The notes: generated by a model from the sequence alone, not told the origin. A DNA stretch of 64,000 nt from Pseudomonadota bacterium (GCA_010031735.1 RGZB01000002.1:2580-66579), one strand, 5' to 3'; numbered from the stretch's first letter, positions 7,268 through 55,341 are shown. Made by a program: numbers and translations.

Positions 7268-7282
7268 TTAACGTTAAATTAA
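7268..7282. promoter_or_regulatory. Perfect TTAA-N7-TTAA (CtrA-type) box
   Basis: TTAACGTTAAATTAA(C). It lies in the divergent metW/ORFan intergenic region, 56 nt upstream of the GTG at 7339. Confidence 0.55.
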
Positions 7283-7338
7283 CCGGAGCGGGCTACACTT
7301 ATACGGTGGAATAAGCGAAATAAAAAGGGCGGAATAGA

Positions 7339-8316
7339 GTGACAGAGAAAGAGACCAGGTATTACGGCATCCCCGCGCAGCATGATGCGGCCGTACAGAT
7401 ATTGAAAGAAGCCGTGCTCCTGGAGCCGGATGCCCATGGCCTTTACCCGTTGATCGTGGTGGTGGGCCCGATGCAGGTGGGAAAATCCACCTTCATGAAA
7501 CGCGCTGCCGGGCTGACCGATGATACGCCGGTCGGTGTCGATTACACCGTGAGCGGAAGGCCTTTCGTCAATGTCAGCACCGCCGATATGGAAGAGGTGC
7601 GCGCACGCAACCCGGAAGAATTCAAAGGAAAGGTCATCAGCTTCCAGGAAGAAGGCGGGGAACGCCTGCTCCTGATTGCCGAGCGCACACGCGACGCTGA
7701 AGAAAAAACAACGCCGGAAGGCATGAACAGGCTGTTGGCGGATCTCGCTGAGCTTCGCAAATCCGCACCTGTACTGCTTGATATCAGCCACTCCAAACAC
7801 CTCATGTTCCCGACCGACTGGGGCCCGGATGAAGATCGGCTGAAAGAGATCGCCGTCAATAACCTGAACGTGCGTAACGATCAGCTCGCCGCGCTCGAAG
7901 CCGCAGGCGGCATGATGATCACGCTCGACCGCGACCAGACACGGGTGATGGATACGCTCCGCACCCTCGCGCAGAGCGATCGCTACCGGAACGCCGCTGA
8001 AGTACCGGCACCCGATCCGATTCTCGAATACACCGATAAGGAGACATACGATGCCCAGTGTGCGGCCGCCAAAGGCTCACGGCGCGATATCCGCGGCGAG
8101 CTGGCGCGCGGACTCATGATGAATGCGGACGGCCCTGTCGTGATCGAAGTCATGGAGCGTTTAATGCGCGGTGGCGTCTCGAACGAAATCATCGCCGGAC
8201 AGATGTTCCGCATGTCTTATGAGCAGCCGGAGGTTCAGAATCCTGCAGCAGTGCCGAGTTTGCAGCTTCCGGGCCAGATTCAGGGCAAAGGCGGTGGCGG
8301 GCGTAGCGATCGCTGA
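7339..8316 (+). CDS. Hypothetical P-loop NTPase-like protein (ORFan)
   Basis: 325-aa ORF with a GTG start. Walker-A-like VVVGPMQVGKST (GxxxxGKST). I recognise no other family feature. There is a glycine-rich C-terminus. It is inserted on the opposite strand between metX and metW. Confidence 0.62.
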   Translation: MTEKETRYYGIPAQHDAAVQILKEAVLLEPDAHGLYPLIVVVGPMQVGKSTFMKRAAGLTDDTPVGVDYTVSGRPFVNVSTADMEEVRARNPEEFKGKVISFQEEGGERLLLIAERTRDAEEKTTPEGMNRLLADLAELRKSAPVLLDISHSKHLMFPTDWGPDEDRLKEIAVNNLNVRNDQLAALEAAGGMMITLDRDQTRVMDTLRTLAQSDRYRNAAEVPAPDPILEYTDKETYDAQCAAAKGSRRDIRGELARGLMMNADGPVVIEVMERLMRGGVSNEIIAGQMFRMSYEQPEVQNPAAVPSLQLPGQIQGKGGGGRSDR

Positions 8317-8321
8317 TAGCC

Positions 8322-9530
8322 TTAGTTCGCATCCGCAGATTTACCCACACGCCGGATGAAGCCCGCGAGCGCTTCGAGGAAGCGCGGCTCATCGAGGAGG
8401 AAGGCATCGTGGCCTTTATCGGTTGGGATCTCGACGAAACTCACATTCGCCCCGACGCCATTCAAGGCATGCACGATCTCGCGCGTTTCGCTGGTGGGGA
8501 ACAGCCAGTCGCTCGAGAACGACATCAGGCAGTATTCCGCTCTCGTGCCCTTGAATACATCGCTCAAGCGGCCACCGTTATCGGCAGCCAGATCGAAATA
8601 ATCCATCGCACGGGTGATGTAGAGATACGAGTTCGCATCGAACCGCTCGACGAAATTCGTGCCCTGGCGGCGGAGGTAGCTCTCCACCCTGAAATCTGCC
8701 TCGAACCCATAGGAGATACGCTCGCGGTCCTGCAGGTTACGACCGAATTTACGCGAAAGCGCTTCCTGTGACAGATAGGTGACGTGCGCCGTCATCCGCG
8801 CGACCGCCAGGCCGCCTGCGGGGAATCTCTTCTCATTGATGTAGTTACCCTCTTTCCACTCCGGATCCGCCATGATCGCCTGCCTTCCCACTTCATGGAA
8901 GGCGATGTTCTGTGCCATGTGGCGCGGAGCGGTCGCGATGCCGACCACAGACCGCACATGATCTTTGTACAGCGAGCCCCATACGAGCGCCTGCATGCCG
9001 CCCATCGACGCACCGATGACGGAAAAGAGCTTCGTGACACCCAGTTGCTCGACCAGCAGCTTCTGCGCACGCACCATATCGGCGATGGTCAGGACCGGAA
9101 ACTCGAGATTGTAAGGTTTCTTCGTTTTTGGATTAATGGCCTTGGGCCCGTAAGAACCCATGCACCCACCAAGCACGTTCGGGCAAATGACGAAATAACG
9201 ATCCGTATCGATGATCTTGCCCGCACCCACGACGCTCTCCCACCAACCCGGCTTTCCGGTGACGGGATGGGTGCTTGCGACATACTGATCGCCTGTCAAC
9301 CCGTGGCAGATTAAGATCGCATTGGAAGCATCGGCATTCAGACGGCCATAGGTCTGGTACGCGAGCGGGAAGGCAGCGATCTCTGCACCCGAGTCGAGTT
9401 TGAGCGGCGCATCCTGTGCTAAAATCGCAATCGCTCCCACTTCCACCTTGCGGTAGGAAGGGCCGAATTCCAGTGTGACAGTCGTCTGTTCCATGGGGAT
9501 GGTTTTACCCGCGCGGGGTATGAATGCCAA
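8322..9530 (-). CDS. metX: Homoserine O-acetyltransferase
   Basis: 402-aa [14 protein letters not shown]..., the nucleophile elbow [12 protein letters not shown], and ...GHDAFLLD are typical of MetX (alpha/beta hydrolase). The true start may be the internal MEQTT at 9494. Confidence 0.92.
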
Positions 9531-9536
9531 GCAAAA

Positions 9537-12149: not shown

Positions 12150-12257
12150 TACTGTCCTGTTATAGAGACTTACAAGGGGCGGAAAAACGACCCTTTAAAG
12201 CAGGGAGGTGTACTAAATGTTGGCGCGTTTGGAAAGTAAAATCGGCGTAAAATCCCA

Positions 12258-12272
12258 TTAACCCTTTGTTAA
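12258..12272. promoter_or_regulatory. Perfect TTAA-N7-TTAA (CtrA-type) box
   Basis: TTAACCCTTTGTTAA(C). It ends 39 nt upstream of the ATG at 12312. TAGAAT (12289-12294) lies 16 nt downstream of the distal half-site, and AAGGAG is at 12301. Confidence 0.6.
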
Positions 12273-12311
12273 CAATAGGTTGTTAGTGTAGAATAGCACG
12301 AAGGAGAAACC

Positions 12312-13157
12312 ATGTCACCCACGACTAGCCACTGGACGGCAGAACAAGTCGCCGGTCTTGCGACCGCGCTCGGCTTCCTTGCCGAGGGCGTGAACAAGGC
12401 CGTTACACTGGTCGGCAAGCATGCGGGGCAGGAGAATGCCGATGCCATGATCAAACCGATCAGCGACGACATGACCGCACTTATTCTCGCGGTGGCGAGT
12501 GCCGATAAAGCCTCCTTGGGCAGCATACTCGAAGACCATTCAGGGGTTCTTTCTGACGCGATCTACGTCTGCCAGAAGCTAAAACTCAAATACAGTGACC
12601 GTTATGCACAAGCCCTTGCTGCAGGCGGCATCGCTGCGCATGAAATCCCACTCCAACCGCCGCCGCGGAAATCCCAAGTCGATACCTTGGAGCGCGCGAC
12701 CACAAAAATCGCGAACGAACAGGAAATGCTCTTGATCGGCTCCCGCTTCGCAGCCGCGGCCGTACAAGCACTCGGCGTCCTTAAGAAAGCCCGGCGTGAA
12801 ACCGTGAATGGCATGAAACTGGAATATGTGGCGGGGCTTACCGTAAAGATACAGAACTGCGATACCGCGTCCGAACTCAAAGAGCTGGTGACCTCCGAAC
12901 GGATGGCGAAATCGCTCTCGACCTCCATGGCCGTGATCAAAGCGCTCGGCGAGCGCAGCATGAACCAGGCGCTCGAGGAATTCTTATCGGCTGCGGAAAA
13001 AGCGAACATCCGCATGATTCCCGCTTCAGCGGAAACCATCCGGGAACTCGGTGGTGCGATCAGCGAAATACGGAAACAACTCAGCGTGAAAACGCCGGAG
13101 ATGGCACCGGCTGCAAAACCGACACCGAAGGATACATCCTCGAACAGCGGTTGGTAG
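12312..13157 (+). CDS. Hypothetical protein (ORFan, predicted helical)
   Basis: 281-aa ORF with an AAGGAG RBS 5 nt upstream of the ATG. No recognisable motif. It is inserted on the opposite strand between dprA and topA. Confidence 0.65.
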   Translation: MSPTTSHWTAEQVAGLATALGFLAEGVNKAVTLVGKHAGQENADAMIKPISDDMTALILAVASADKASLGSILEDHSGVLSDAIYVCQKLKLKYSDRYAQALAAGGIAAHEIPLQPPPRKSQVDTLERATTKIANEQEMLLIGSRFAAAAVQALGVLKKARRETVNGMKLEYVAGLTVKIQNCDTASELKELVTSERMAKSLSTSMAVIKALGERSMNQALEEFLSAAEKANIRMIPASAETIRELGGAISEIRKQLSVKTPEMAPAAKPTPKDTSSNSGW

Positions 13158-13159
13158 TT

Positions 13160-14387: not shown

Positions 14388-14402
14388 TTAATATTTCTTT
14401 AA
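14388..14402. promoter_or_regulatory. Perfect TTAA-N7-TTAA (CtrA-type) box
   Basis: TTAATATTTCTTTAA(C). It lies in the divergent dprA/14458 intergenic region, 55 nt upstream of the ATG at 14458. Confidence 0.55.
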
Positions 14403-14457
14403 CAATTTTACGTTATTGTTCAGTGAAACACGAAAATCATGCACATCGGGGGAATTT

Positions 14458-15690
14458 ATGGCTAAAAGGCTGATCGTTTATACCGCTGCTACCGGTTCAC
14501 GTTTCCACCGCGGCCAGAATCCTCACCTTCCCTTCACGATCGACGAAGTGATTGAGGATATCCAAGGCTGTTATGATGCCGGCTCACGCTATTACCATTA
14601 CCATTCCCTCACCGATGATGGCCGCCATATCTCGCTGCCGGATAAATACGAAGCCATCGGCAACTGGGTTGCCCAGAATCTGCCCGACATGCGTCTAAGC
14701 TTCGCCACCTCTCGTGGCGGGCAAGTGAACAACCAGGTCATGGAATTCCTGAACCGACAATACGGCGTCCCACTCAAAGGCAGCAACATCAACAATATCC
14801 CGGATGAACAGTTCCTGGCGGCCGAACTCGTGCGCGCCGGCTGTCTGACCCTTCCATCGGGTGCGCTTCCTTACGCCTGCACCACGATGACGGGTGCAGA
14901 GATCCGCATGGCCAAAGAAAATGAAACCGGTAACGCCGGCTATATCGACCCGCGCGGGACCTCCCGTGTGCAACTGGGATTCGAATATATCACCCGACTC
15001 GCCGCCGCACGGGGCGTGGTGGGTGAGGTGGAGATGACGACCTATACCACCAACGGCAAACGCGGTATTGAGAAAGAGGAGCGCGATTTCGACTCCCTCG
15101 GCCCGACGGCACCGGCGAGCAGCTTCAAAGTGCTGATGGACCTCGTGAAGAAAGATATGGTTGGAAGCCCACTCAGCATCGTACTGCTGCCGGGTTTCTC
15201 GGACGGCCTTCCGCTCAAAAGTCTATTCATCCATAAAGCGATCGACGATGCGGCGGCGATACTCACGGAGTTACGCAAACGCGGCGGTGATGGTTGGATC
15301 ACACTCGGCGGCGTCATCACACCGAACAAATACGAAGAACCACTCGAAGAACGTCATTTAACCGCACAAAACCTGAATCCTGCCCGTCAGAAAATCTTGA
15401 AAATCGCACTCGATCGCCCGGAAGTCAGTGCGACCCGCGTCGGTATGGAGGATGCGCCGTGGTGGCGTAACAGCGACGGTTCCATCGAACCGAAAAGCAA
15501 CACTTTCTACGTTCAGAAAACCGTGACACGCATCCGGGAACTCGGCGGCGAGATCATCACCGATCCGAAAGAAATGGATGCCATTATAGGTCGCGGCAAC
15601 CGCGCACAGGATCCCATCCTTAACGGCGGTTCGCTCGGTGAACTCTCTGCCAGGATACGAGGGGAATTACAGACCGTACGCGGCGCCTAA
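14458..15690 (+). CDS. Putative BKACE/DUF849-like (3-keto-5-aminohexanoate cleavage family) enzyme, divergent
   Basis: The ORF track starts at 14416. I prefer the ATG at 14458 because GGGGGA lies 5 nt upstream. The N-terminus RLIVYTAATGSRFHRGQNPHLPFTIDEVIEDIQGCYDAGSRYYHYHS resembles the DUF849 pattern (..itcA.tG........P.tp.Eia......y.aGA...HlH.R). Assignment is from memory only. Confidence 0.5.
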   Translation: MAKRLIVYTAATGSRFHRGQNPHLPFTIDEVIEDIQGCYDAGSRYYHYHSLTDDGRHISLPDKYEAIGNWVAQNLPDMRLSFATSRGGQVNNQVMEFLNRQYGVPLKGSNINNIPDEQFLAAELVRAGCLTLPSGALPYACTTMTGAEIRMAKENETGNAGYIDPRGTSRVQLGFEYITRLAAARGVVGEVEMTTYTTNGKRGIEKEERDFDSLGPTAPASSFKVLMDLVKKDMVGSPLSIVLLPGFSDGLPLKSLFIHKAIDDAAAILTELRKRGGDGWITLGGVITPNKYEEPLEERHLTAQNLNPARQKILKIALDRPEVSATRVGMEDAPWWRNSDGSIEPKSNTFYVQKTVTRIRELGGEIITDPKEMDAIIGRGNRAQDPILNGGSLGELSARIRGELQTVRGA

Positions 15691-16444: not shown

Positions 16445-17557
16445 ATGCTGAAGTTCGGTGAATCTGCCCCTTTATTCATTTCGCAAACCACGCGTAACCC
16501 GAACTATGACTTCTCCACGATCGGTGGCGTATACCTCGTGCTCTGCTTCTTCGGCAGTACGAGCAATCCTTTTGCTGCGCGCGTCTTATCCCTGTTCCAC
16601 AAACGGGAAGATCTCTTTAATGCCGTCGATGCGGGATTCTTCGGCATCTGTACCGACCCGCAAGACCGCTCGAAGGATCGTGTCAAGGATGTGGGCTTTG
16701 GCATCATCCACCTTTGGGATTTCGACAAGATAGTGACCAAAGGCTACGGCGCATGCACAGCAGACGGCGCCACCAAACCCTACACCGTCGTGCTGGACCC
16801 CGCGCTTCGCACCATCAAGAGCTTTGCCTTCGCCGATAGCGATACGCCCGAGGGACATGTGGAACAAGTCCTCGCTTTGGTGGAGTCTTTTCCAAAAACC
16901 AAAGATAGCACAAACGAAGAACCAAAGAGTATGGTGGCGCCCGTGCTTTCTGTACCGCGCGTATTCACCCCGGAGTTCTGCGATCACCTTATCGAATATT
17001 ACAAGACGCATGAGCATGCCGATTCCGGCTTCATGCGCGATGTGGGCGGCAAGACCATAGGTGTCGTCGATTACACGATCAAAAAACGTGACGATTGCAT
17101 GGTCGAGGATGCAGAACTACGTGCGGAGATCCGTGGATATTTGAGTTCACGCCTGCTACCCTCGATCCGTAAGGCCTTCTGTTACCGGGCGACCGCCATC
17201 GAACGCTATATGATCGGTTGCTATGAGGCTAAAAGCGGCGGGCATTTCCGCCCGCATCGCGACAACACCACGCGCGCAACGGCACACCGTCGCTTCGCGG
17301 TCACCATCAACCTGAATCCGGAGGAATATGAAGGTGGCAACCTGCGTTTCCCCGAGTTCGGCCCGCAGCAATACCGCGCTGAGAAAGGCGGTGCGGTGGT
17401 GTTCTCCTGCTCGCTCCTGCATGCGGCCTTGCCCGTCACGAAAGGTACGCGCTTTGCCTTCCTGCCCTTCCTGTATGATGCCGAGGCCGCAAAGATACGC
17501 GATGAAAACCAGAAGTATCTCGATACCTCTGCGTCATTATCTAGCGCTGCGCAGTAA
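16445..17557 (+). CDS. Redoxin-like domain fused to 2OG-Fe(II) oxygenase (prolyl-hydroxylase-like)
   Basis: The ORF track starts at 16322. I prefer the ATG at 16445 because GGAG lies 6 nt upstream. The C-terminal half has HFRPHRDN...RRFAVTINLN..YEGGNLRFPEF...GGAVVFSCSLLHAALPVTKGTRFAFL (HxD...H, R). The N-terminal half is AhpC/TSA-like (GESAPLF...VYLVLCFFGS). Confidence 0.72.
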   Translation: MLKFGESAPLFISQTTRNPNYDFSTIGGVYLVLCFFGSTSNPFAARVLSLFHKREDLFNAVDAGFFGICTDPQDRSKDRVKDVGFGIIHLWDFDKIVTKGYGACTADGATKPYTVVLDPALRTIKSFAFADSDTPEGHVEQVLALVESFPKTKDSTNEEPKSMVAPVLSVPRVFTPEFCDHLIEYYKTHEHADSGFMRDVGGKTIGVVDYTIKKRDDCMVEDAELRAEIRGYLSSRLLPSIRKAFCYRATAIERYMIGCYEAKSGGHFRPHRDNTTRATAHRRFAVTINLNPEEYEGGNLRFPEFGPQQYRAEKGGAVVFSCSLLHAALPVTKGTRFAFLPFLYDAEAAKIRDENQKYLDTSASLSSAAQ

Positions 17558-19418: not shown

Positions 19419-19433
19419 TTAATCTTTTATTAA
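19419..19433. promoter_or_regulatory. Perfect TTAA-N7-TTAA (CtrA-type) box
   Basis: TTAATCTTTTATTAA(C). It lies 53 nt upstream of the ATG at 19487. Confidence 0.55.
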
Positions 19434-19486
19434 CCGTTATCGTGTACTCTTAAAGCGTGTACCTGTAATTACAACGCGAGTCAACG

Positions 19487-20197
19487 ATGGCATATTCGCA
19501 GGAAAATTGCATACTGCCCCGAGAGGTGCCCCGCTTAAAAACGGGAGACGCCCGCGCGACGCTGAAACGCGTGATGGGCAAACGCGTGATTTTACATACG
19601 CGCGGTGCGGATATCGCCACCACCCGTATCCTGACACTCGAGGAAGCCGCTGCCCAAGGCATCAAAGAAAAAAGCATCCTGGAACAGTACCGTGCCGGCG
19701 AACATTCCGGCTTCATCTCGTATGTGACCTGGAAGATCAACCCGCTCTGGCTTGATCGCGGTCAGCAGGATTTCGGCAAATGGCTGCAGGATGTACCGAT
19801 CCCGAGCCACCATATGCGCACCATCGCCGATGCGGTCCGCATGAACGCCATCGAGCGCATGGAATTCTTCATCGCCGGCTGTGTGAGCGATGAAGCGGTG
19901 ACACAAACCGATCTTAAGAAATATATCGCAGGACAATCGCCTTCCTTCCAGCAACTCTTCGCTGCGATTACGGCGTCGTGCTGCGTGCAGGAAACGGCAG
20001 AAGGCGGCCCGGAGAAAGTATTGTTCTGGGATACGGTCATCAACAAAGCGAAAGCGGAGGGCGCGCCGGATGAAATCGCCGCTTCGCGCCCGCTGCTGCA
20101 ACAAGACATTTCCCGCCTTGCCGGTGTCACCCCCGAATTTGTGCATCAACTGTTCAGGAAAGATCATGAGCTATATACGCCTCGCCAGGGTGATTAA
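19487..20197 (+). CDS. Hypothetical protein (ORFan), possible C-terminal HTH
   Basis: 236-aa ORF. The C-terminal QQDISRLAGVTPEFVHQLFRKD looks like a helix-turn-helix. No other recognisable family. Confidence 0.58.
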   Translation: MAYSQENCILPREVPRLKTGDARATLKRVMGKRVILHTRGADIATTRILTLEEAAAQGIKEKSILEQYRAGEHSGFISYVTWKINPLWLDRGQQDFGKWLQDVPIPSHHMRTIADAVRMNAIERMEFFIAGCVSDEAVTQTDLKKYIAGQSPSFQQLFAAITASCCVQETAEGGPEKVLFWDTVINKAKAEGAPDEIAASRPLLQQDISRLAGVTPEFVHQLFRKDHELYTPRQGD

Positions 20198-20687
20198 TAT
20201 TTTGCCGCTCGACGACGAATTGCTCGAGGCGATATATCAATCCTATCTCTCGACGTACCGTCTGAAACTGACGATGGAACAGATTTTTACGCCCGGGAAA
20301 ACCACCGGCACCATGGTCGATGAGCTGATCCGCTCGCGCGGCATGGCGGCCGACGGCAGCCTGGTTTCCTGGAGCGACGTGAGCCGTGCGCTCACTGAGT
20401 CTCCACCAAGACTGCTCGAGGTCGAGCCGCTTACCTACCGTCTGCTCGGAACCTTGATCGACAAGGCGATGGGCCGTGAGGTGGCAGAGGGCGAAGAACC
20501 GAGTATCTCGCGCCAGCGTGTCTCTGCATGGGTGACTCAAGGTGTCAGACCCGATGAGCGCATGCGCGCCGTGCTGTGGGACATCTTCAACGTGTTGCCG
20601 GAAGAACAGGCCGTGTACGACCAGGCACGCCCAGGCCCTTCGCAATACCGTTCGCAGGCCAAATCAACCGACTTTCCGAACCGCTAA
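20166..20687 (+). CDS. Hypothetical protein (ORFan), possible HTH
   Basis: The ORF track starts at 20070. I prefer the ATG at 20166 because AGGAAA lies 5 nt upstream. It overlaps the end of the previous ORF by 32 nt. SISRQRVSAWVTQGVRPDERM is HTH-like. Confidence 0.52.
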   Translation: MSYIRLARVINILPLDDELLEAIYQSYLSTYRLKLTMEQIFTPGKTTGTMVDELIRSRGMAADGSLVSWSDVSRALTESPPRLLEVEPLTYRLLGTLIDKAMGREVAEGEEPSISRQRVSAWVTQGVRPDERMRAVLWDIFNVLPEEQAVYDQARPGPSQYRSQAKSTDFPNR

Positions 20688-23301: not shown

Positions 23302-23558
23302 GTGCCTTTTTCTTTCGTCAGGCAATCAACCATAAAACAGTGAGAGCGGCTACTACTAAATCAAATAAAAATAATTAATCTTTAAGACTAAGAGAGATTA
23401 TATTTGTAGATAGTCATTCCGAAAACGGTAATTCTTTTATCTTTCACAGTATGTCTGTAGGAAAAAGCCTGTGTATATTTTCTTGGGATGATTTGTAATA
23501 GAAATCCATATCATTGAAAAGCCGATACTAAATCCTGCAGGAAAATCCTACACAAGCC

Positions 23559-23581
23559 TGTGGACAACTATCTTATCCACC
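23559..23581. promoter_or_regulatory. Pair of one-mismatch DnaA boxes
   Basis: TGTGGACAA (reverse complement TTGTCCACA) and TTATCCACC, 5 nt apart, in inverted orientation. Confidence 0.55.
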
Positions 23582-23664
23582 GCTTTCACAGGTAGGGGAA
23601 AAAAGCGTGCACTTGGGGAAAAGGTATGTGACAAGTTTCGTAAACTATGGAATAACTATAACGC

Positions 23665-23691
23665 TGTGGAAAACCAATGCTTTTATCCACA
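23665..23691. promoter_or_regulatory. Pair of DnaA boxes including a perfect consensus TTATCCACA
   Basis: TGTGGAAAA (reverse complement TTTTCCACA) at 23665-23673 and TTATCCACA at 23683-23691. Confidence 0.65.
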
Positions 23692-23755
23692 GTATTTAAA
23701 TAAAGATACACAGCGAATCCACAACAACCTGTGTATAAAAAACCGCATAAACGAC

Positions 23756-24586
23756 ATGGAAAAGAAGCAATTTCACGTACATCTGGTATCAGACTCAACA
23801 GGTGAGACCGTGAGCAGCACCGCACGTTCGGTCTTTGCCCTTTTCGAAGACACGGAGCCGCAAGAACACCTCTGGTCACTTGTCCGTACCAAAGGACAGA
23901 TGGAACGCGTGGTCGAAGAGATCCGCGATAATCCCGGTATCGTACTCTATACTGTTGTAGAGGAAAAACTGCAGCAGATACTAAAAGACAGTTGCCGCGA
24001 GATGGGTATTCCCTGCGTTTCCGTTTTGACGCATGTGATCCAAGAGGTCGCTTCGTACCTTGGCATCAAGGAAAAAGCGAAAGCCGGCAAGCAGCACCAA
24101 CTCACCGAAGAATATTTCTCGCGCGTGGAAGCGATCAACTTCGCGCTCGAACATGATGATGGCATGAATACGGAAAATCTGGAACAAGCGGATATCGTGC
24201 TTGTCGGCCCGTCGCGCACGTCGAAAACGCCGACCTGCGTCTATCTCTCCTATCGCGGCTATTATGTCGCGAACGTGCCGCTGGTGAAAGACTGCCCGCT
24301 TCCGGACAACCTGTTCACGCTCAAAAAACCACTGGTGGTTGGGCTTATCATCAGCCCTGAACGTCTGGTGCTGATCCGCAAATCGCGTCTCGTCTCACTC
24401 AATGAAACACGCGAGACGGATTATGTGGATATGGCAGTGATCAAAGACGAGGTCGCCGATGCGCGTAAGATGTATGCCAAATACGAATGGCCGGTGATCG
24501 ATGTCACGCGCCGCTCAATCGAGGAGACGGTCGCGAACATTATCAATCTATACAATGAACGTAAGGGGAAAAAAGAGGGCGTATGA
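23756..24586 (+). CDS. Pyruvate,phosphate dikinase / PEP synthase regulatory protein-like (DUF299, RP001 homologue)
   Basis: The ORF track starts at 23666, which would run through the DnaA boxes. I prefer the ATG at 23756 (MEKKQFHVHLVSDSTGETV...). ADIVLVGPSRTSKTPTCVYLSYRGYYVANVPLV is the P-loop signature of the family. Confidence 0.85.
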   Translation: MEKKQFHVHLVSDSTGETVSSTARSVFALFEDTEPQEHLWSLVRTKGQMERVVEEIRDNPGIVLYTVVEEKLQQILKDSCREMGIPCVSVLTHVIQEVASYLGIKEKAKAGKQHQLTEEYFSRVEAINFALEHDDGMNTENLEQADIVLVGPSRTSKTPTCVYLSYRGYYVANVPLVKDCPLPDNLFTLKKPLVVGLIISPERLVLIRKSRLVSLNETRETDYVDMAVIKDEVADARKMYAKYEWPVIDVTRRSIEETVANIINLYNERKGKKEGV

Positions 24587-25458: not shown

Positions 25459-26051
25459 TCACGATCGGGCTCACAGGGAATATCGGTACGGGCAAAAGCT
25501 TCACCGCGGCGATATTCGCCGAACTGGGGATCCCGGTGTTCAATGCCGATGATGCGGTGCATGCGCTCCTCAAAAAAGGCGGCGCCGGCGTGAAGCCGGT
25601 CGCAAAACTATTTCCAGACGTGGTGAAAGAAGGTGCGGTAGACCGAAAAGCTTTAGGCGCCATCGTGTTCAAAAACCCCACGAAGCGCAAGGCGCTCGAA
25701 ACCATCCTGCACCCACTGGTGCGTAAGGCAGAGGAAAAAGCGATCCGCGCTGCGCGGCTTAAAGGTAAACATATGATCGTGCTCGATATCCCGCTGCTAT
25801 TCGAGGCGGGTGGTTGGCGCAGGGTCGATGTCATTGTCGTGGTGAAGTCCTCCCCTTTCATCCAGAAGCGCCGTGTGCTCGCGCGAAAAGGTATGACCTT
25901 GAAACGCTTCCATGAGGTGCTCGAGACCCAATGGCCGAGCTATAAAAAAGAAAAGGGTGCGGACTTCGTGATCGACACGGGCGCGAGCAAGCGCGTGATC
26001 AAGGCGCAGATAAAAAAACTTATCGCTCATATGAAAGCGAAATATGTTTAA
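25455..26051 (+). CDS. coaE: Dephospho-CoA kinase
   Basis: The ATG at 25455 overlaps the aroE stop (ATATGA). MITIGLTGNIGTGKS (P-loop), ...FNADD...IVLDIPLLFE. The ORF-track start at 25392 is an upstream in-frame extension inside aroE. Confidence 0.9.
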   Translation: MITIGLTGNIGTGKSFTAAIFAELGIPVFNADDAVHALLKKGGAGVKPVAKLFPDVVKEGAVDRKALGAIVFKNPTKRKALETILHPLVRKAEEKAIRAARLKGKHMIVLDIPLLFEAGGWRRVDVIVVVKSSPFIQKRRVLARKGMTLKRFHEVLETQWPSYKKEKGADFVIDTGASKRVIKAQIKKLIAHMKAKYV

Positions 26052-30159: not shown

Positions 30160-30421
30160 GTTTTTAAGGCTTAAATCTATTTGACAAGGCCCATAGGTGC
30201 TGGTAGGAAAGCCTTGTCAGGCCGGTTTCGCCTGAATCTTAAGACCTCGTTCAAGCAGGTTCTGATTTCCCTCCCTCGTTCGTAGTACGATCTGAATACA
30301 CACACGCGGGGCAAGGTTTCACAAACGCTTGTACGGCAAGTCACAAATACCCGCCTTTCTTTCTCGAAAGCACCTAAGCGGGCCCATTCCCAACCCTTAT
30401 CTAAAGGCTTTAGTTTTTTAT

Positions 30422-32050
<1,629 letters not shown>

Positions 32051-33866: not shown

Positions 33867-33910
33867 GGTATTCTCCCCTATTTCCTGCCTAGAGGCTAAC
33901 ACATGGCTGC

Positions 33911-33925
33911 TTAATAAGTCGTTAA
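33911..33925. promoter_or_regulatory. Perfect TTAA-N7-TTAA (CtrA-type) box
   Basis: TTAATAAGTCGTTAA, in the AT-rich divergent RTX/MCP intergenic region. It is 44 nt upstream of the RTX ATG (33866) and 193 nt upstream of the MCP start. Confidence 0.55.
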
Positions 33926-34118
33926 TTTATTAATAATCGTCTAAAATTTGAAATAAATTACTAATATCAGCTGTTTCCTAACCTAGCGCATTATGCATGT
34001 GGCTTTTTATGCACGGCTGTGGACGATTTATCTTAACCACATAAAAAAGAAGGGTTTTAAATTTTGTAGCCTATCGGATTGATGATAGCATCATCCTATC
34101 CATATCTAAGATCATGGG

Positions 34119-36224: not shown

Positions 36225-36247
36225 CCTTTCAAACTAACACTTTCGCA

Positions 36248-36262
36248 TTAACGTTTTGTTAA
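36248..36262. promoter_or_regulatory. Perfect TTAA-N7-TTAA (CtrA-type) box
   Basis: TTAACGTTTTGTTAA(C). It lies 37 nt upstream of the GTG at 36300. TAGTAT is at 36274-36279 and AAGAGGAG at 36285. Confidence 0.6.
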
Positions 36263-36299
36263 CGCACTATCTTTAGTATGAAAATAAGAGGAGCAGTGT

Positions 36300-39048: not shown

Positions 39049-39072
39049 GCACAAAACCATGCACAAACAAAA

Positions 39073-39104
39073 ACACCCACCGCAGCGGCGGTGGGTGTTT
39101 TGTG
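39073..39104 (+). terminator. Rho-independent terminator after mdh
   Basis: ACACCCACCGC-AGCG-GCGGTGGGTGT followed by TTTGTGTTG. It lies 25 nt after the mdh stop. Confidence 0.78.
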
Positions 39105-39205
39105 TTGTTACGGACGTTTGCAGGCATGTAACAGATGGTAGCACGTGTGTAACAAAGACACGGGCATCGATCTGTCAGTGACCCCTGCATTCATCCTGGT
39201 GTTGG

Positions 39206-39403
39206 TTACTTGCTCTTGGTGTTCGTGGTGGGAGTGGTGGGCAGGTCCGCGATCGGCGGGGCCTCCACTTTCACCTTCGGAACGAGCGCATTCCAGACTG
39301 CCGGTCCGACCTCGACACCTTTCCAGATGGCGAGGCTGAGGATTACCAGCAGCCCGATCAGCGTGCACGTCCCTTTGAACACGTCGAGGACTTTCTGGGT
39401 CAT
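39206..39403 (-). CDS. Small hypothetical membrane protein (65 aa)
   Basis: The ATG at 39403 is preceded by GAGGG at 6 nt. It has one TM (CTLIGLLVILSLAIW) and a Pro/Thr-rich tail. Support is weak because it is short. Confidence 0.4.
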   Translation of the reverse strand: MTQKVLDVFKGTCTLIGLLVILSLAIWKGVEVGPAVWNALVPKVKVEAPPIADLPTTPTTNTKSK

Positions 39404-39656
39404 GTGTAGCCCTCACGGTTAGGGGAGTGATTCCGTTCACTGTGTGGGCTGTCCTAGGACGGGTATACACGAAAGTCTTTTGGTCTCCGCTGAAACCTTA
39501 GACTGTAAACTGGCAAATACTCTAACTCTGCATAGCTATGTTGACCCTTACACTATAGCGTAGGAATGTTACAAACGCGTGAAGCTTTTGCCGCATGCGC
39601 AATTTATAATATATTGTAATATAAGAGAAAATACGCGACCTGCGGTGCTTTTTATG

Positions 39657-41075
39657 CTAACTGCGGCCCGGATGACTGATGATGCCCTCGCTCATCAACT
39701 CGCGCGACTGCAGGGCTTTTTCGAGGTCCCGGATCAGGGCCGGGTCCACAAGCCCGGTGCGCTCCAGCGTGCGTACGAGTAGCGATACGGCGGCAGGGTA
39801 GGCGGTCTCGGGTGTCTTCGCCCCAAGCCCGGCCTTTGCGTGCGGTTGCAATAGCTGACCCAGCGGATACGGTTCGAAAGCAGGCGCGGGAAGGATGCCG
39901 GTCAGCACCGTCGCAGGACGTTCGATCCTATCCGACCAGGCGATCTTCCCGGTGCGGCCATCGACGATGCTCTGGCTGAAGAGGTCCTGCAGTTCACGCA
40001 GCACTACGGCCTGAGGGCGGTCACCGAACGGATAACCGAGCTCGTCACCCACACTTTCGATCGATTCGTTACGCTTGAAATACTCCAGTGGCGGCTTGAT
40101 GCGGTATTTACCCTCCCCGACCGGTACCAAATAACACATATCGAGCGTGCGCGCGGTCATGAAGAGCGATTCTTCGCTGTCGACGCTTTTGAACAACCCG
40201 CGTTCCGCGGGCTTTAAACGGTGGATATCCTCCTCGTATCCTTCTTTGGCGAGTTTACGGCCATACGCCATACCGAGTGCCATCAGGAAGGCAGTGAGTG
40301 TCGCATGTTCTTTCGGCGGGAAGGGGTTGCGGCGGAGTTCGCCGGTCTCGAGGGTGGCGCGGATCATATTGCCGGTGCCGCGCGCGATCGAGCAGTTGAT
40401 CTCTTCGGTTGAAACGAGCTGGTAGGGCTGGGACAACACCGCCATCGCATGTGCGACCATGAACAGCATGCCTTCGAATACACCGTTCGTGAGGTAGTTC
40501 GGCGCACGTGCCGAAAAGAGTTTCTCGCCCGTATGTGCATCGATCGCGCTTGCGTGTTTGTGGGTGTTGCGGAAGAAAAAGAATTCGTGGTGATCCCTGA
40601 AGACATGTGCGGGCTGGAAGTCATCGTTCCAGACGCCGAGATCCATCCCGTGCTCTTTCACCAGATCCACGAGGGTCATGATCAACATCTGGCGGTGTTT
40701 CAGCCACGTTTCCCAGTTCGTGTGCAGGGTTTGCGTTTCCATGACACCGATGGAATCAAAGATCGAGAGCGCAGGAATGGTGGAGCCGAATTTGCGGTGG
40801 ATGAGCAGACCCACCGGGCGGAAGAAATGCAGATCAAGCGCGAGCAATTCCGTCGGGCTGAAATCCTGCATCTCGTTTAGTTCATGCTGGTACTGGCCTT
40901 TGACCGCTTCATCGGCGGCCATTCTCAAGATTGTGGATATCTGCTGCACCCAGAATACGGTGGATTTCCTCGTGGAGTGCGCCGTCCAGATGGGCGGTGA
41001 CCGGCGGCGGCGTGATGTGCCCCGGGAAGGGATGCTGATAGATATTTCCGTAACCTCTTTTCGACATCCTTCCAT
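39657..41075 (-). CDS. Hypothetical protein (ORFan)
   Basis: 472-codon ORF. The first ~51 codons look non-protein-like (SRGTSRRRRSPP), so the true start may be the ATG at 40922 (MAADEAVKGQ...). I recognise no family motif. Confidence 0.58.
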   Translation of the reverse strand: MEGCRKEVTEISISIPSRGTSRRRRSPPIWTAHSTRKSTVFWVQQISTILRMAADEAVKGQYQHELNEMQDFSPTELLALDLHFFRPVGLLIHRKFGSTIPALSIFDSIGVMETQTLHTNWETWLKHRQMLIMTLVDLVKEHGMDLGVWNDDFQPAHVFRDHHEFFFFRNTHKHASAIDAHTGEKLFSARAPNYLTNGVFEGMLFMVAHAMAVLSQPYQLVSTEEINCSIARGTGNMIRATLETGELRRNPFPPKEHATLTAFLMALGMAYGRKLAKEGYEEDIHRLKPAERGLFKSVDSEESLFMTARTLDMCYLVPVGEGKYRIKPPLEYFKRNESIESVGDELGYPFGDRPQAVVLRELQDLFSQSIVDGRTGKIAWSDRIERPATVLTGILPAPAFEPYPLGQLLQPHAKAGLGAKTPETAYPAAVSLLVRTLERTGLVDPALIRDLEKALQSRELMSEGIISHPGRS

Positions 41076-41090
41076 TCTAGGAAGAAAAGC

Positions 41091-41105
41091 TTAAAAAACA
41101 CTTAA
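41091..41105. promoter_or_regulatory. Perfect TTAA-N7-TTAA (CtrA-type) box
   Basis: TTAAAAAACACTTAA, in the divergent region between the 472-codon ORFan and the FIST gene. It is 33 nt upstream of the ATG at 41139. Confidence 0.5.
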
Positions 41106-41138: not shown

Positions 41139-42305
41139 ATGGATATCCAACAGCTTTTATGGAACGAAGAATATGGCTGGCGGCCCGTGGAAGCGGGCGA
41201 ACCGGTCGACTTCGTCGAAAAGCCGATCGATGCGCAGCTGGTGCTCTATTTCGGTGCGGCGAGCGTCTTCGAAAAAGTCCCGGTCTATGAGGAATTGAAA
41301 CGCCGCTACCCCTATGCCCACATCGTGGGGGCATCGAGTGCGCTACAGGTCTCTGGCCATTATCCGCTGACAGGCGCTATCACGGCGACGGCTATCCGCT
41401 TCCGCGATGCGGAAGTGCGTGTGGCATCGACGGAGCTGAAGCGCCCTGAACAATCCTATGGTGCCGGTGTGCAGATCGGTGAATCGCTGATATCGCCGGA
41501 CTTAAAAGCCGTGCTGCTCCTGTGCGACGGAACGGTGGCGGATGCGGGTGTGATCATTTCCGCGATGGTGGGCAAGATCGGCAAGAAGATCCCGATTTCG
41601 GGGATGGTCTCCTCGACGGGGCTCGGTGCGGTGCATACCTTTACCGGTGCCGATAGTGTGCCGGAACCCGGCAAGATCGCTGCGATCGGGTTCTATGGTA
41701 AGCACGTCGAACTCAATACCGCAGGTTTCCATAGCTGTGTACCCATGGGTGCACCGCACAAGATCACCCGTGCGAAAGGCCACATCGTCTATGAGATGGA
41801 CGGTGTCGATGCGCTCAGCGTTTATCGCAAATACGTGAAAGAGGATACGGCGGAAGGCGACCGCATGCGCCTCTTGTTCCCCTTCATGATGTCGCGCGAA
41901 GATATGCCCGCGCACGGTGTGCTCCGTTCCGTCGTGATGGTGGATGAAGGGGCGAAGGCCCTGGTGCTCGGCGGGAACGCACCGGAAGGCCGTATCCTGC
42001 AGATGATGATGTCGCGCCCCGAACATATCGTGATAGACGGCGAAGCGGCGGCGCTTGCCAAGGCGCGCTTGATCAAAAGTACTGCAAAAGGCGATGTGCT
42101 GGCGCTGCTTGCGGGCGATGTCTCGCGTGCCGCCGCGATGGACCGTAATATCTATCAGGAGACCGGCTATGTTGCGGAACTGCTGGGCTCAAAACCCTCG
42201 CTCATCGGCGGCTATGGGAACGGCATGTTCATGCCGGTGATGCCCGGTGAGGAAAGCAAGTTGCACAACTACACGACCGCGATCGCGGTGCTGCAGGAAG
42301 TCTAA
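41139..42305 (+). CDS. FIST-domain (FIST_N/FIST_C) signal-transduction protein, putative
   Basis: 388-aa ORF. The length, the early AQLVLYFGA motif (compare the 'pdlvllFas' pattern), ...VLLLCDG... and the two-lobed glycine-rich layout resemble FIST proteins. Assignment is from memory only. Confidence 0.5.
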   Translation: MDIQQLLWNEEYGWRPVEAGEPVDFVEKPIDAQLVLYFGAASVFEKVPVYEELKRRYPYAHIVGASSALQVSGHYPLTGAITATAIRFRDAEVRVASTELKRPEQSYGAGVQIGESLISPDLKAVLLLCDGTVADAGVIISAMVGKIGKKIPISGMVSSTGLGAVHTFTGADSVPEPGKIAAIGFYGKHVELNTAGFHSCVPMGAPHKITRAKGHIVYEMDGVDALSVYRKYVKEDTAEGDRMRLLFPFMMSREDMPAHGVLRSVVMVDEGAKALVLGGNAPEGRILQMMMSRPEHIVIDGEAAALAKARLIKSTAKGDVLALLAGDVSRAAAMDRNIYQETGYVAELLGSKPSLIGGYGNGMFMPVMPGEESKLHNYTTAIAVLQEV

Positions 42306-42320: not shown

Positions 42321-42563
42321 CTATGCGGCTTGCTGTTTGATCCAATCGAGCGCGATCGGATCCGGGTTCTTTCCCGCGCCTTGGAACAAGACATACCCGA
42401 AGGTCGAAAGATCGAGCTCTTCCTGCGGATGTCCGACCTCTTTCTCGAAGATCGGTTGTTTGATCGCGGGGATATCCATGATGTACCAGCGCACACCGCT
42501 TGCGGTTTTCAGAACCACCGTCCAGATGCCGTTGCCGATCGATTTCTTTTTGCTATAGACCAT
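42321..42563 (-). CDS. Small hypothetical protein (80 aa), second gene of a bicistron
   Basis: The ATG at 42563 is preceded by TAGGAG at 6 nt, and that TAG is the stop of the upstream 229-aa ORF. No recognisable family. Confidence 0.55.
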   Translation of the reverse strand: MVYSKKKSIGNGIWTVVLKTASGVRWYIMDIPAIKQPIFEKEVGHPQEELDLSTFGYVLFQGAGKNPDPIALDWIKQQAA

Positions 42564-42572
42564 ACCGTGCTC

Positions 42573-43262
42573 CTAGCGTTCGATTCTACGATCAAGGCGA
42601 GCTGAGCGCTCGGCCGAAACCAATTCACCGACCGCCGGGCGCGACGCGCCGACCAACAGCTCATCGAGTTGGCGGATGCTGCCCTTCAGGCTTTTTACAG
42701 TATCCGGTGAAGAAACGGCACGCACGGCATTCGTTGCATCCGCACCGAGACTATTTGCCTCACGTTTAGATTTCTCAGTTGCACCACTCGTGCGACCGAT
42801 GAGGTCGCGCACTTCGCGGTCAAAGGCCTCTGTGACACCGAAACGCGCAGCATTATCCGTCGCCTGCGGGTTCGGTTGGCCCGTAAAGGTGGTATCGCGG
42901 AAAGTATCGAGTTGTTGGACAAGCGTGGTAAGCGTATTGCGGAAACCACGCAGGTCGTCCGTCAGTATCACATATCCTCCGTTTGCAAAATCCATCGTAC
43001 CGTCCGGATTGGAAGGGGTGTATCTCGCATCGATCTCTGCCAGCGTAGTTGCCACGTCAAGGGCAGGTTTGTAGCGGAGTTTCGGTGTGGTTTCCTCTCC
43101 ATAGCCTGGATGGACTGCACCGAGTGCAGCAAAGGCATTGTTTGCAACGACATCGCCACCACGCAGCTCATGCACGGCATAGGCCGGCTCTAGCGCATCG
43201 GCGACCTGGCGGTAAAAATCCACCGTGATCGTGCTGAATTTCGTATCGGTAGTTCCGGTCAT
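42573..43262 (-). CDS. Hypothetical protein (ORFan, 229 aa)
   Basis: The ATG at 43262 is preceded by AAGGAGG at 6 nt. No signal peptide or TM. No recognisable family. Confidence 0.65.
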   Translation of the reverse strand: MTGTTDTKFSTITVDFYRQVADALEPAYAVHELRGGDVVANNAFAALGAVHPGYGEETTPKLRYKPALDVATTLAEIDARYTPSNPDGTMDFANGGYVILTDDLRGFRNTLTTLVQQLDTFRDTTFTGQPNPQATDNAARFGVTEAFDREVRDLIGRTSGATEKSKREANSLGADATNAVRAVSSPDTVKSLKGSIRQLDELLVGASRPAVGELVSAERSARLDRRIER

Positions 43263-43302
43263 AAAGTCCTCCTTGTCACACCTTTAAAATAGCCTAAAAT
43301 CC

Positions 43303-43317
43303 TTAACAGACCGTTAA
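43303..43317. promoter_or_regulatory. Perfect TTAA-N7-TTAA (CtrA-type) box
   Basis: TTAACAGACCGTTAA. It lies 40 nt upstream of the minus-strand ATG at 43262. Confidence 0.55.
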
Positions 43318-50956: not shown

Positions 50957-50988
50957 TAAAACAAGTACAAGAATAACGGAGTCTAACA

Positions 50989-52401: not shown

Positions 52402-52410
52402 TTAAGCCTA

Positions 52411-53328: not shown

Positions 53329-54937
53329 CGATCAATGCGCTCTCGATGAGGCGTTTCGTGTAATCGGTTTTGGGTTTTGAGAATATCTGCGAATTGGTAC
53401 CGCTCTCCACAATCTTCCCTTCCTTCATCACGACGATATCATGTGCGATGGAGCGAATCACACGCAGGTCATGCGAGATGAAGATATACGAAAGCTTACG
53501 CTGCTTTTGTAGGGCCTTCAGCAGTTCGAGGATATCCGATTGTGTCGAGAGATCGAGTGCGCTCGTGGGTTCATCGAGCACGAGCAGGCTGGGATTGAGC
53601 ACCAACGCACGTGCAATAGCGATACGTTGGCGCTGGCCGCCCGAGAATTCATGCGGATAACGATGCTTAAGGCCGCCATCGAGCCCTACTTCTTTCAGGG
53701 CCGCGATGACCGTCTTTTCGATGGATTCGGGTGTAAGGTCTGCTTGGTGTGCACGAAGCCCTTCTGCCACAGTGTCGCGCACGGTGAGGCGTGGATTCAA
53801 ACTCGCGAACGGATCCTGGAATACGATCTGCATGCGGCTTCGAAGCGTCCGAAGTGCATCGCCATTCACACCCCGGAGATCTGTGCCCTCGAATTGGATC
53901 GAGCCCGTTGATTCCGTAAGACGAAGGACTGCATGCGCGAGCGTCGATTTTCCAGAACCCGACTCACCGACGATGCCCAGTGTACGTCCGGTTTTGAGCG
54001 TGAGCGTCACATCATTCACGGCGTCTAAGTGGCGCGTCGTCATACCAAAGAAATTCTTGGCGAGCGGGAAGCGCACCGTCAAGTGTGTGACTTCTGCGAT
54101 CGGGGCGCTGCTGCCTTTCATCATGACCGGCTTACCGTGCGGTGCGGACTCTAACAGGTGTTTGGTGTAGGGATGTTTGGGTTTCCTGAATACCTCCGCG
54201 ACCGCGCCGCTTTCAACGAGCACGCCTTTTTGCATAATGGCGACACGATCCGCCATCCGGCGAACCAGGGTCAGATCATGCGTAATCAGGAGTACGCCCA
54301 TACCCAGACTCTTCTGCAGATCTTTGAGTAAGGTGAGTATCTGTGCTTGTACTGTGACATCGAGCGCGGTGGTCGGTTCATCCGCGATCAAGATATCGGG
54401 TTTATTCGCAAGCGCCATCGCGATGCAAATGCGTTGGCGCTGGCCGCCCGAGAGTTCATGCGGATACGCCTTCAGGCGGCTCTCGAGTGCTTCGAGCCCG
54501 ACCATCGTCAATAGTTCGCTGGTGCGCTTCTTCAGTGCATCCGGCCAGAGGGCCTGGTGCAGCAAAATCGCTTCGTGTATCTGTTTCTCGATCGTATGCA
54601 GCGGGTTTAACGCGGACATCGGCTCTTGGAAGACCATGCTGATCTGTTTACCGCGAATGGCCTGCAGGCCGACATCGCTCCTGAGCGAAATATCCTGACC
54701 ACGGAACAAGGTATTTCCTTTGACCAGCCGCGCATTGGCGGGCAGCAGTTTCAACACCGAAAGCGCAGTGACCGTCTTGCCGGAGCCCGATTCGCCCACC
54801 AGGGCAACGAGCTCCCCGCGCCCGATCTGCAGCGAAAGGTTCTGGACGACGGGTTGGTCGTAGGCATTGCCATCCGCATCCACGTTACGGAAGCTGACCG
54901 AGAGGTCCTTGATCTCAAGTAAATGTGCCGAGCGCAT
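53318..54937 (-). CDS. yejF: Peptide/microcin-C-type ABC transporter, fused double ATPase (YejF-like)
   Basis: 539-aa ORF with two ABC cassettes. Walker A is GESGSGKT and GESGSGKS, the signature is LSGGQRQR and FSGGQRQR, and Walker B is ILIADEPTTALD and LLVLDEPTSALD. Confidence 0.82.
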   Translation of the reverse strand: MRSAHLLEIKDLSVSFRNVDADGNAYDQPVVQNLSLQIGRGELVALVGESGSGKTVTALSVLKLLPANARLVKGNTLFRGQDISLRSDVGLQAIRGKQISMVFQEPMSALNPLHTIEKQIHEAILLHQALWPDALKKRTSELLTMVGLEALESRLKAYPHELSGGQRQRICIAMALANKPDILIADEPTTALDVTVQAQILTLLKDLQKSLGMGVLLITHDLTLVRRMADRVAIMQKGVLVESGAVAEVFRKPKHPYTKHLLESAPHGKPVMMKGSSAPIAEVTHLTVRFPLAKNFFGMTTRHLDAVNDVTLTLKTGRTLGIVGESGSGKSTLAHAVLRLTESTGSIQFEGTDLRGVNGDALRTLRSRMQIVFQDPFASLNPRLTVRDTVAEGLRAHQADLTPESIEKTVIAALKEVGLDGGLKHRYPHEFSGGQRQRIAIARALVLNPSLLVLDEPTSALDLSTQSDILELLKALQKQRKLSYIFISHDLRVIRSIAHDIVVMKEGKIVESGTNSQIFSKPKTDYTKRLIESALIDAE

Positions 54938-55145
54938 AAGCGGTTACTATGTCGCGGTTTGAACGAATAATCAACCGTGAATCACACCCTTGTAAAAGCA
55001 GAAAATCCTGCTTTTCTGGCCTTTTAAGCGGCCTGGGGCGGGTTGATACCCAGTATAGACTTGCAAGATAGGATAAGTTGGGCTATAAGCAGCGCTCTTT
55101 CAAGCCCTTTCCGCGTCCGGAGAGCCCTTGAACTGTCCCTTTCGG

Positions 55146-55221
55146 GAGCGCGTAGCTCAGTCGGTAGAGCACCTGACTTTTAATCAGGTTGTCGTTGGTT
55201 CGATTCCAACCGCGCTCACCA
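55146..55221 (+). tRNA. tRNA-Lys (anticodon UUU), CCA encoded
   Basis: GAGCGCG-TA-GCTC-AGTCGGTA-GAGC-A-CCTGA-CTTTTAA-TCAGG-TTGTC-GTTGG-TTCGATT-CCAAC-CGCGCTC-A-CCA. All four stems pair, and the anticodon is TTT. Confidence 0.94.
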
Positions 55222-55326
55222 CTTTTCCCTCGAACACCCTCCGGAATCGTACCAACCAACGCTGGCTCTGTTTTGTGCATAAGGAATGATGCGGCTTTTG
55301 ACACACCCAAAGGTTGAAACCCAGAA

Positions 55327-55341
55327 TTAACCAAATTTTAA
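55327..55341. promoter_or_regulatory. Perfect TTAA-N7-TTAA (CtrA-type) box
   Basis: TTAACCAAATTTTAA(C). It lies 48 nt upstream of the GTG at 55390 (57 nt from the ATG at 55399). Confidence 0.55.

Follow-up and report, generated by a model that had tools for sequence, protein, structure and literature searches.

A CtrA-type TTAA-N7-TTAA box at a fixed distance from a predicted -10 hexamer marks candidate activator-dependent promoters of orphan and accessory genes in an alphaproteobacterial genome

Introduction

The response regulator CtrA is a known binder of TTAA-N7-TTAA(C) in Alphaproteobacteria. In activated promoters of Caulobacter the full CtrA motif lies near -35, and it starts at -39 at ctrA P2 (PMC4287350); most CtrA-activated promoters have one near-consensus site at -35 (PMC4287350, PMC11264516). 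The Caulobacter half-motif is TTAACCAT (PMC6180460), and 52 transcription start sites (TSSs) with a full motif are known in its 4 Mb (PMC4287350). Different alphaproteobacterial orders share the motif, and some Alphaproteobacteria have no ctrA (PMC2877005). The present analysis concerns a stretch of 64,000 nucleotides from a Pseudomonadota metagenome-assembled genome (MAG; GCA_010031735.1, RGZB01000002.1:2580-66579), referred to throughout as the window, in which exact TTAA-N7-TTAA boxes occur upstream of orphan and accessory genes. Locus tags of window proteins in the MAG are EB060_01005, EB060_01025, and EB060_01095, and the contig measures 70,838 nt.

Two other systems offer points of comparison. 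In PhoB-dependent promoters the pho-box, a direct repeat with a period of 11 bp, takes the place of the -35 element and lies about 10 nt 5' of the -10 hexamer. The pho-box differs from the box examined here in its half-site (CTGTCAT), its signal, and its regulon. The PmrA repeat of Legionella and Coxiella is said, in work by Zusman and colleagues from 2007, to stand at a fixed distance upstream of the -10 element. The enterobacterial PmrA box, CTTAAT-N5-CTTAAT, has a TTAA-N7-TTAA core identical to that of the CtrA motif (PMC3973317), and in Legionella the winged-helix regulator PmrA activates about 40 Dot/Icm effector genes that are scattered over the genome (PMC6989116, PMC2701608).

Results and discussion

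Number, spacing, and location of the boxes

An earlier note, made from the sequence alone, had listed nine exact TTAA-N7-TTAA sites in the window and had placed all of them between genes. All nine were recovered with the positions and sequences it gave, and all nine are intergenic on an independent gene map built from open reading frames (ORFs), codon-usage scores, and Pfam matches. The distances of 33-56 nt from box to start codon were likewise correct, and none of the 72 TTAA tetramers within coding sequence of the window has an N7 partner, as had been claimed. Two one-mismatch boxes named in the note, at 58887 and 59952, are real, and a third was found at 6661. The box is absent from the promoter regions of the porin, yggS, hemE, DUF299, secB, guaB, rho, and mdh genes, in agreement with what the note had said of all of these except DUF299.

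Whole-window dinucleotide shuffles gave an expectation of 0.24 sites, and nine sites were reached in none of 100 shuffles. Because intergenic DNA has about eight times the TTAA density of coding DNA, the shuffles were repeated on the intergenic DNA alone (about 5 kb, AT-rich); the mean was 0.37 and the maximum four in 2000 shuffles, compared to the nine observed. Across TTAA-Nk-TTAA with k from 0 to 30, nine pairs occur at k = 7 and between zero and four at each other spacing, making N7 the sole enriched spacing. The window thus contains a non-random, intergenic, N7-specific set of boxes. A corresponding N7 excess was not found around sucC in 1.32 Mb from 80 other genomes and MAGs, mostly alphaproteobacterial among the matches listed (8 matches vs 2-14 at other spacings), nor around dprA in 0.74 Mb of metagenome loci (12 vs 5-21). 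Two of the boxes, the 36248 box among them, were reproduced exactly in an independent ENA assembly from the same sample (L081), and an assembly artefact was rejected for these two sites on the basis of that identical sequence.

A predicted composite promoter of box and -10 hexamer

When each site was oriented by its nearest gene and the sites were aligned, a TAnnnT hexamer was found 11 nt 3' of the box. It is read here as the -10 hexamer, an element that the earlier note had not seen. With the gene orientations given in that note, a perfect TAnnnT stands exactly 11 nt downstream in seven of the nine exact sites (binomial p ~5e-11), which supports its claim that the promoter-proximal half-site lies roughly where a -35 element would be. 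A search for TTAA-N7-TTAA-N11-TAnnnT with at most one mismatch returned 15 matches vs 0.19 expected. It added three further boxes, at 6675 (-), 58901 (-), and 59952 (+), each with one mismatch, a perfect hexamer, and an orientation toward a gene. The total is 12 composite promoters in the window, present in about half of its promoter-bearing intergenic regions (Table 1). The matrix of the 12 sites reads TTAAC(C/G)nTTTn-TTAA(C/G)-N10-TAnnnT, and the T, A, and T of the hexamer are found in 12, 11, and 11 of the 12 sites, respectively. The base after the first TTAA is C in nine of the 12 and that after the second is C or G in ten; five sites contain TTAACCA(A/T), which resembles the Caulobacter half-motif.

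An ordinary sigma-70 housekeeping promoter was considered and rejected, as there is no proper -35 element and spacers of 9 and 20 nt separate the two half-sites from TAnnnT, neither being a workable -35 distance. A TTGACA-like hexamer 16-18 nt 5' of the -10 was not found at most sites, and the sole match in a generic sigma-70 scan was the 12258 site (TTGTTA-17-TAGAAT). Since most sites offer no usable -35, activator dependence is proposed: the sites look like activator-dependent promoters without a -35 element. With a TSS predicted about 7 nt past the hexamer, the box would span roughly -38 to -24, and short leaders with Shine-Dalgarno sequences fit 3' of the hexamers. The sites are very likely to be functional regulator-dependent promoters.

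Table 1. Predicted composite promoters and antisense orphan or accessory units of the window, and boxes in related loci. Window positions are counted from its first nucleotide; the last three rows use the coordinates of the related loci.
Feature	Coordinates	Strand	Sequence elements	Context
One-mismatch promoter, mismatch in proximal half-site	6644..6675	-	TTAACCAAAAAGTAA-N11-TAGACT	Upstream of no-family gene 5484-6656
Exact box and -10	7268..7299	+	TTAACGTTAAATTAA; TACACT	Upstream of P-loop orphan gene 7339-8316
Exact box and -10	12258..12289	+	TTAACCCTTTGTTAA; TAGTGT; alternative TAGAAT at 12289-12294	Upstream of orphan gene 12312-13157
Exact box and -10	14388..14419	+	TTAATATTTCTTTAA; TATTGT	Upstream of BKACE-like gene, start 14458, end 15690
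Exact box and -10	19419..19450	+	TTAATCTTTTATTAA; TACTCT	Upstream of orphan genes 19487-20197 and 20070-20687
Exact box and weak -10	33894..33925	-	TTAACGACTTATTAA; TTAGCC	44 nt upstream of RTX gene 32154-33866
Exact box and -10	36248..36279	+	TTAACGTTTTGTTAA; TAGTAT	Upstream of orphan gene 36300-37985
Exact box and perfect -10	41074..41105	-	TTAAGTGTTTTTTAA; TAGAAT	Faces no-family gene 39657-41075, start uncertain
Exact box and -10	43286..43317	-	TTAACGGTCTGTTAA; TATTTT	Upstream of orphan gene 42573-43262 and 80-aa ORF 42321-42563
Exact box and -10	55327..55358	+	TTAACCAAATTTTAA; TACGTT	Upstream of divergent PfkB-like kinase gene 55390-56577
One-mismatch box and -10	58870..58901	-	GTAACCATTTGTTAA; TAGATT	Upstream of acidic 128-aa orphan gene 58458-58844
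One-mismatch box and -10	59952..59983	+	TTAACCAAATGTAAA; TAAGAT	Upstream of orphan gene 60006-60878 and PRTase-like gene 60890-61945
Antisense unit	7339-8316			Between metX (8322-9530) and metW (6661-7257)
Antisense unit	12312-13157			Between dprA and topA
Antisense unit	14458-15690			Between plsY and dprA
Antisense unit	19487-20687			Between hemJ and tRNA-Leu
Antisense unit	39657-41075			Between mdh and FIST
Antisense unit	42321-43262			Between FIST and sucC
Antisense unit	60006-61945			Between oppB-like (61942-63066) and oppC-like (58927-59949)
L007 box	3200-3231		Then 11 nt, TATAAT	Precedes, by 51 nt, a lineage-specific insertion of two ORFs between sucC and sucD
L005 box	7482-7513			Precedes, by 51 nt, a lineage-specific membrane-protein gene inserted in the rho-mdh interval
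L089 box	16502-16533		TAAATG at same spacing	58 nt upstream of MCP gene

Two of the targets proposed in the earlier note are not upheld. FIST (41139-42305, +) had been assigned to the 41091 box, yet the hexamer toward FIST is poor (TTAGCA, or TATACT 7 nt further) and the perfect TAGAAT faces the orphan gene on the minus strand; FIST is therefore probably not the main target. The MCP gene, cited as a classic CtrA target, is not a clear one: the 33911 box, which has a good -10 in neither direction, is separated by 193 nt from the MCP start (34119), and a TTAACCAC half-site alone is nearer. Overlapping one-mismatch sites accompany the 33911 box at 33922 and 33930. Upstream of the MCP start by 78 nt, the sequence TTAACCACA (34033-34041) combines a CtrA-type half-site (TTAACCA-) with a one-mismatch DnaA box.

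Several further features were observed at individual sites. An ATG at 41067, 6 nt past the TAGAAT of the 41091 site, opens a 52-codon ORF on the minus strand (40909-41067, MSKRGYGNIYQHPFPGH...), and its stop codon overlaps, in another frame, the first plausible start of the long no-family ORF (ATG at 40922, MAADEAV...). This short ORF could be a leaderless upstream ORF or could reflect an assembly frameshift in the MAG. At the 36248 box the flanks are symmetrical, as a TAGTTT (36231-36236) stands 11 nt away on the other strand (span 36231-36262, -); it would begin a transcript antisense to the 3' end of the MCP gene. The likely true start of gene 5484-6656 is the ATG at 6614.

Genes downstream of the composite promoters

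Genes leading a transcription unit were counted with a composite promoter in their own orientation. Such a promoter precedes 12 of 14 accessory or no-family units vs none of 19 housekeeping units (Fisher p=2.6e-7), bearing out the tie to lineage-specific genes claimed earlier. Nine target products, including that of 5484-6656, have no match in Pfam, NCBIfam, or PHROGs. Two that had been called ORFans proved to be unique in database searches: the sole match of ORF 36300-37985 was itself among 5.8 billion proteins, and that of ORF 12312-13157 was itself among 1.84 billion representatives. A single-sequence AlphaFold model of the latter contains an N-terminal helical bundle (residues 10-130, pLDDT ~85-92), for which a Foldseek search of the PDB gave no significant match (best E=0.39). 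The codon-usage scores of the orphan genes are native.

The non-orphan targets are the RTX protein, the BKACE-like protein, the divergent PfkB-like kinase (nearest homologues at most 34% identical), and, doubtfully, FIST. Within the RTX gene, a 27-nt (nonapeptide) repeat unit occurs at least 19 times at 32776-33632, and a pattern scan of JGI metagenomes found no relatives of the BKACE-like gene. Seven products (5484-6656, 7339-8316, 36300-37985, 42573-43262, 58458-58844, 60006-60878, and 60890-61945) are hydrophilic and lack predicted membrane segments, and no signal-peptide-like N-terminus was seen by eye in any of them. Furthermore, many orphan products have Arg/Lys-rich C-terminal tails (...PDPRRR, ...KKKGKRKR, ...RERREDRDRT). 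Such tails recall those of some type IV secretion substrates.

One orphan gene stands outside the box set: a 403-aa no-family gene at 26044-27255, inserted between coaE and dnaQ and on the same strand as both. Its start and stop codons overlap these neighbors, and it lacks a box as well as any intergenic DNA of its own.

Antisense placement within conserved gene pairs

Seven of the orphan or accessory units lie antisense within conserved, co-oriented gene pairs (Table 1). In five of the seven, the 3' end is 2-5 nt from the stop codon of the converging neighbor or overlaps it by 4 nt, which leaves no room for a terminator between the two genes. Convergent transcription or interference is possible at these units, judging from this arrangement. 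The claim that ORFans interrupt conserved synteny was confirmed by two comparisons. First, mdh, FIST, and sucC are contiguous in the relatives L082 and L085. Second, plsY, dprA, and topA share a strand in metagenome loci, with a plsY-dprA gap mostly below about 80 nt (n=56) and a dprA-topA gap below 160 nt in 23 of 39, while the corresponding gaps of the window measure 1.0-1.4 kb and each contain a gene of opposite orientation that has a box of its own. The first comparison also indicates that FIST is no orphan insertion but belongs to the conserved order; it stands boxless behind mdh in the relatives and became box-adjacent here after an orphan gene was inserted before it.

Beside one of these units, a 608-nt gap (39049-39656, GC 0.51) separates mdh from the 3' end of the no-family gene. 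It has no confident gene call and its sole content is a 120-aa ORF on the minus strand (39108-39470). Rho (30329-32050) is 573 aa long, compared to 474-544 aa in relatives; its Pfam Rho_N match begins at residue 159, indicating an N-terminal extension of about 158 aa.

Host and likely replication origin

The window derives from an alphaproteobacterial MAG, as judged from SucC matches and from the gene cluster at the origin. The closest SucC loci, among the matches listed, are mostly from Alphaproteobacteria and are distant relatives (~70% identity); L082, L085, and L005 are syntenic with the window. The window also holds the cluster hemJ-hemH-hemE / DUF299-aroE-coaE-dnaQ / secB together with clustered DnaA boxes, and the arrangement hemE / DUF299-aroE-coaE-dnaQ / secB is taken here to be the conserved alphaproteobacterial origin cluster. 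Within it, the likely chromosomal replication origin is at 23326-23760, where hemE and the DUF299 kinase/pyrophosphorylase gene flank a gap. The gap is AT-rich (35% GC), lies at the cumulative GC-skew minimum, and is the site of five DnaA boxes within 180 nt (23559-23738), including the sole perfect TTATCCACA of the window at 23683. The DUF299 start at 23666 was probably called too early, given that the Pfam match begins at residue 38.

Boxes in related loci

Three related MAG loci (L007, L005, and L089) each contain exactly one TTAA-N7-TTAA, in promoter geometry (Table 1), with a T(A/T)nnn(T/G) hexamer at the spacing seen in the window. In L001-L085 (1.37 Mb), the sites of L005 and L007 are the sole matches to the composite with T(A/T)nnnT as its hexamer. 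No boxes were found at the homologues of the PfkB-like gene (at most 34% identical), and relatives of dprA are at most 55% identical.

Proposed regulator and alternative explanations

The identical half-sites one helical turn apart, their position in place of the -35 element, and the fixed distance to the -10 suggest a dimeric winged helix-turn-helix activator. About twelve complete activator-dependent promoters would share one architecture, TTAAC-N6-TTAA(C/G) followed by 11 nt and TAnnnT. A dimeric response regulator of the OmpR/PhoB family would bind the two half-sites, 11 bp apart, at roughly -38 to -24, take the place of the -35 element, and bring the holoenzyme with the housekeeping factor sigma-70 to the -10 hexamer. 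Given an alphaproteobacterial host, this regulator would most likely be phosphorylated CtrA; CtrA is proposed on the strength of the host, the TTAAC flanks, and its known binding of this motif. When active, it would turn on together a scattered lineage-specific set composed of the orphan, RTX, BKACE-like, and PfkB-like genes. Activation by CtrA is probably the mechanism, and we infer activation rather than repression, the identity of the binding protein, and the TSS positions from the DNA sequence.

The predicted promoters are similar to CtrA-dependent promoters of Caulobacter and other Alphaproteobacteria in the core motif, the N7 spacing, the TTAAC flank, the use of one near-consensus site per promoter, and the absence of a canonical -35. 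The predicted 5' end of the box at about -38 compares with -39 at Caulobacter ctrA P2. Likewise, the 41091 box lies between divergent genes, as do the CtrA sites shared by the divergent fla2 promoters of Rhodobacter (PMC6180460), and the related MAG locus L089 has its box before an MCP gene. Of the earlier proposal that the ORFan set is wired to a CtrA-like regulator, the motif, the link to accessory genes, and the host hold, and the -10 geometry and TTAAC flanks are consistent with it. The developmental or attack-phase module that the note went on to suggest is speculative.

Several observations weigh against CtrA. The TTAA-N7-TTAA core alone is not specific to it, being also that of gammaproteobacterial PmrA-type boxes (PMC3973317). 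At one site per 5-7 kb, the boxes take in about half of the local promoters and are about tenfold denser than in Caulobacter (12 sites per 64 kb here, 52 full-motif TSSs per 4 Mb there), a density unusual for a CtrA regulon. The targets are nearly all orphan or accessory genes and not flagellar, pilus, division, or methylase genes; classical CtrA targets are few in the window, and the one present, MCP, has the half-site only. Unlike in Caulobacter, no full box occurs at the origin, where 23326-23760 contains only ATAA-N7-TTAA at 23371. A tblastn search with a Caulobacter CtrA query found no OmpR-family regulator gene in the window, the part of the MAG that it covered, or in the comparison loci. 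No boxes were found at the FIST orthologues of the nearest relatives found (L082 and L085; 36-40% identical and directly behind mdh), and no relatives close enough for phylogenetic footprinting were found in the collections searched. Finally, some sites have another -10-like hexamer 5-6 nt past the first, which leaves the exact predicted TSS uncertain. A literature search on Micavibrio and CtrA found nothing useful.

The best placed of the alternatives, although an unlikely one, is that another OmpR/PhoB-family regulator (PmrA/QseB-like, or a lineage-specific CtrA paralogue) drives an accessory or effector regulon. The Legionella/Coxiella PmrA regulon and the PmrA/BasR box resemble the window in the tandem TTAA repeat of 11-bp spacing and in the winged-helix response regulator that is proposed here, and PmrA switches on dozens of genes that are scattered, evolve fast, and have unknown functions. 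The targets found here are soluble, hydrophilic, and family-less, many with Arg/Lys-rich C-termini. The site density and the boxless origin, both atypical for CtrA, would also be accommodated. The flanks, however, are TTAAC and not CTTAAT: by the definition of the PmrA box (PMC3973317), T should follow the first TTAA and C precede it, which is the case in two and three of the 12 sites, respectively. The PmrA systems belong to gammaproteobacterial hosts, while in Alphaproteobacteria CtrA is the known binder across orders (PMC2877005). Moreover, PmrA targets are proven type IV effectors, whereas no product of the window is a proven secreted protein, and no secretion system or pmrAB-like gene was seen in the window.

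That the three-part motif is recognized by an alternative sigma factor, or by sigma together with an UP-like element, is a considerably weaker candidate. The rigid, invariant geometry from box to TAnnnT and the resemblance of TTAAC to the TTGAC of a -35 would be expected under such a mechanism, but neither half-site lies at a workable -35 distance, TAnnnT is the sigma-70 -10 core, and a pair of identical half-sites at an 11-bp interval is characteristic of a protein that binds DNA as a dimer. Still less probable is carriage of the motif with the orphan genes in a mobile cassette or miniature repeat, such that the sites reflect shared ancestry and not regulation. The boxes do accompany genes seemingly inserted in conserved synteny; in the alignment, however, similarity between sites is confined to motif positions, and the orphan proteins are mutually unrelated, lack phage-family matches, and have native codon usage. 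A dispersed repeat or miniature inverted-repeat transposable element was rejected, with no extended similarity between copies and no repeat family that contains the boxes. Chance or the composition of AT-rich intergenic DNA, in which TTAA is enriched, is effectively refuted by the intergenic shuffles, the sole enrichment of N7, the fixed -10 distance, and the excess of composite matches.

Biological implications

Promoters with CtrA boxes are already well known; what is unusual here is their density and their near-exclusive link to orphan genes. On a speculative note, CtrA or a derivative may control a lineage-wide regulon of orphan genes, possibly effector-like, that may also dampen the interrupted housekeeping pairs by convergent transcription. 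This extension is unlikely. If true, it would parallel, in Alphaproteobacteria, the PmrA-effector regulon of Legionella and would be a life-stage switch in which the gain of accessory functions is coupled to a loss of housekeeping expression.

Should the assignment to CtrA be true, one well-understood regulator would provide a handle on many homologue-less genes of an uncultured bacterium. The orphan genes would form a defined, co-regulated module that could be found genome-wide by one composite pattern, and their timing would be predictable, falling in the CtrA-active stage, typically a dispersal or non-replicating one. In related MAGs, TTAA-N7-TTAA-N11-TAnnnT would serve as a cheap predictor of lineage-specific regulons and of true start codons. 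Furthermore, the window would show how new genes are wired into an existing global circuit.

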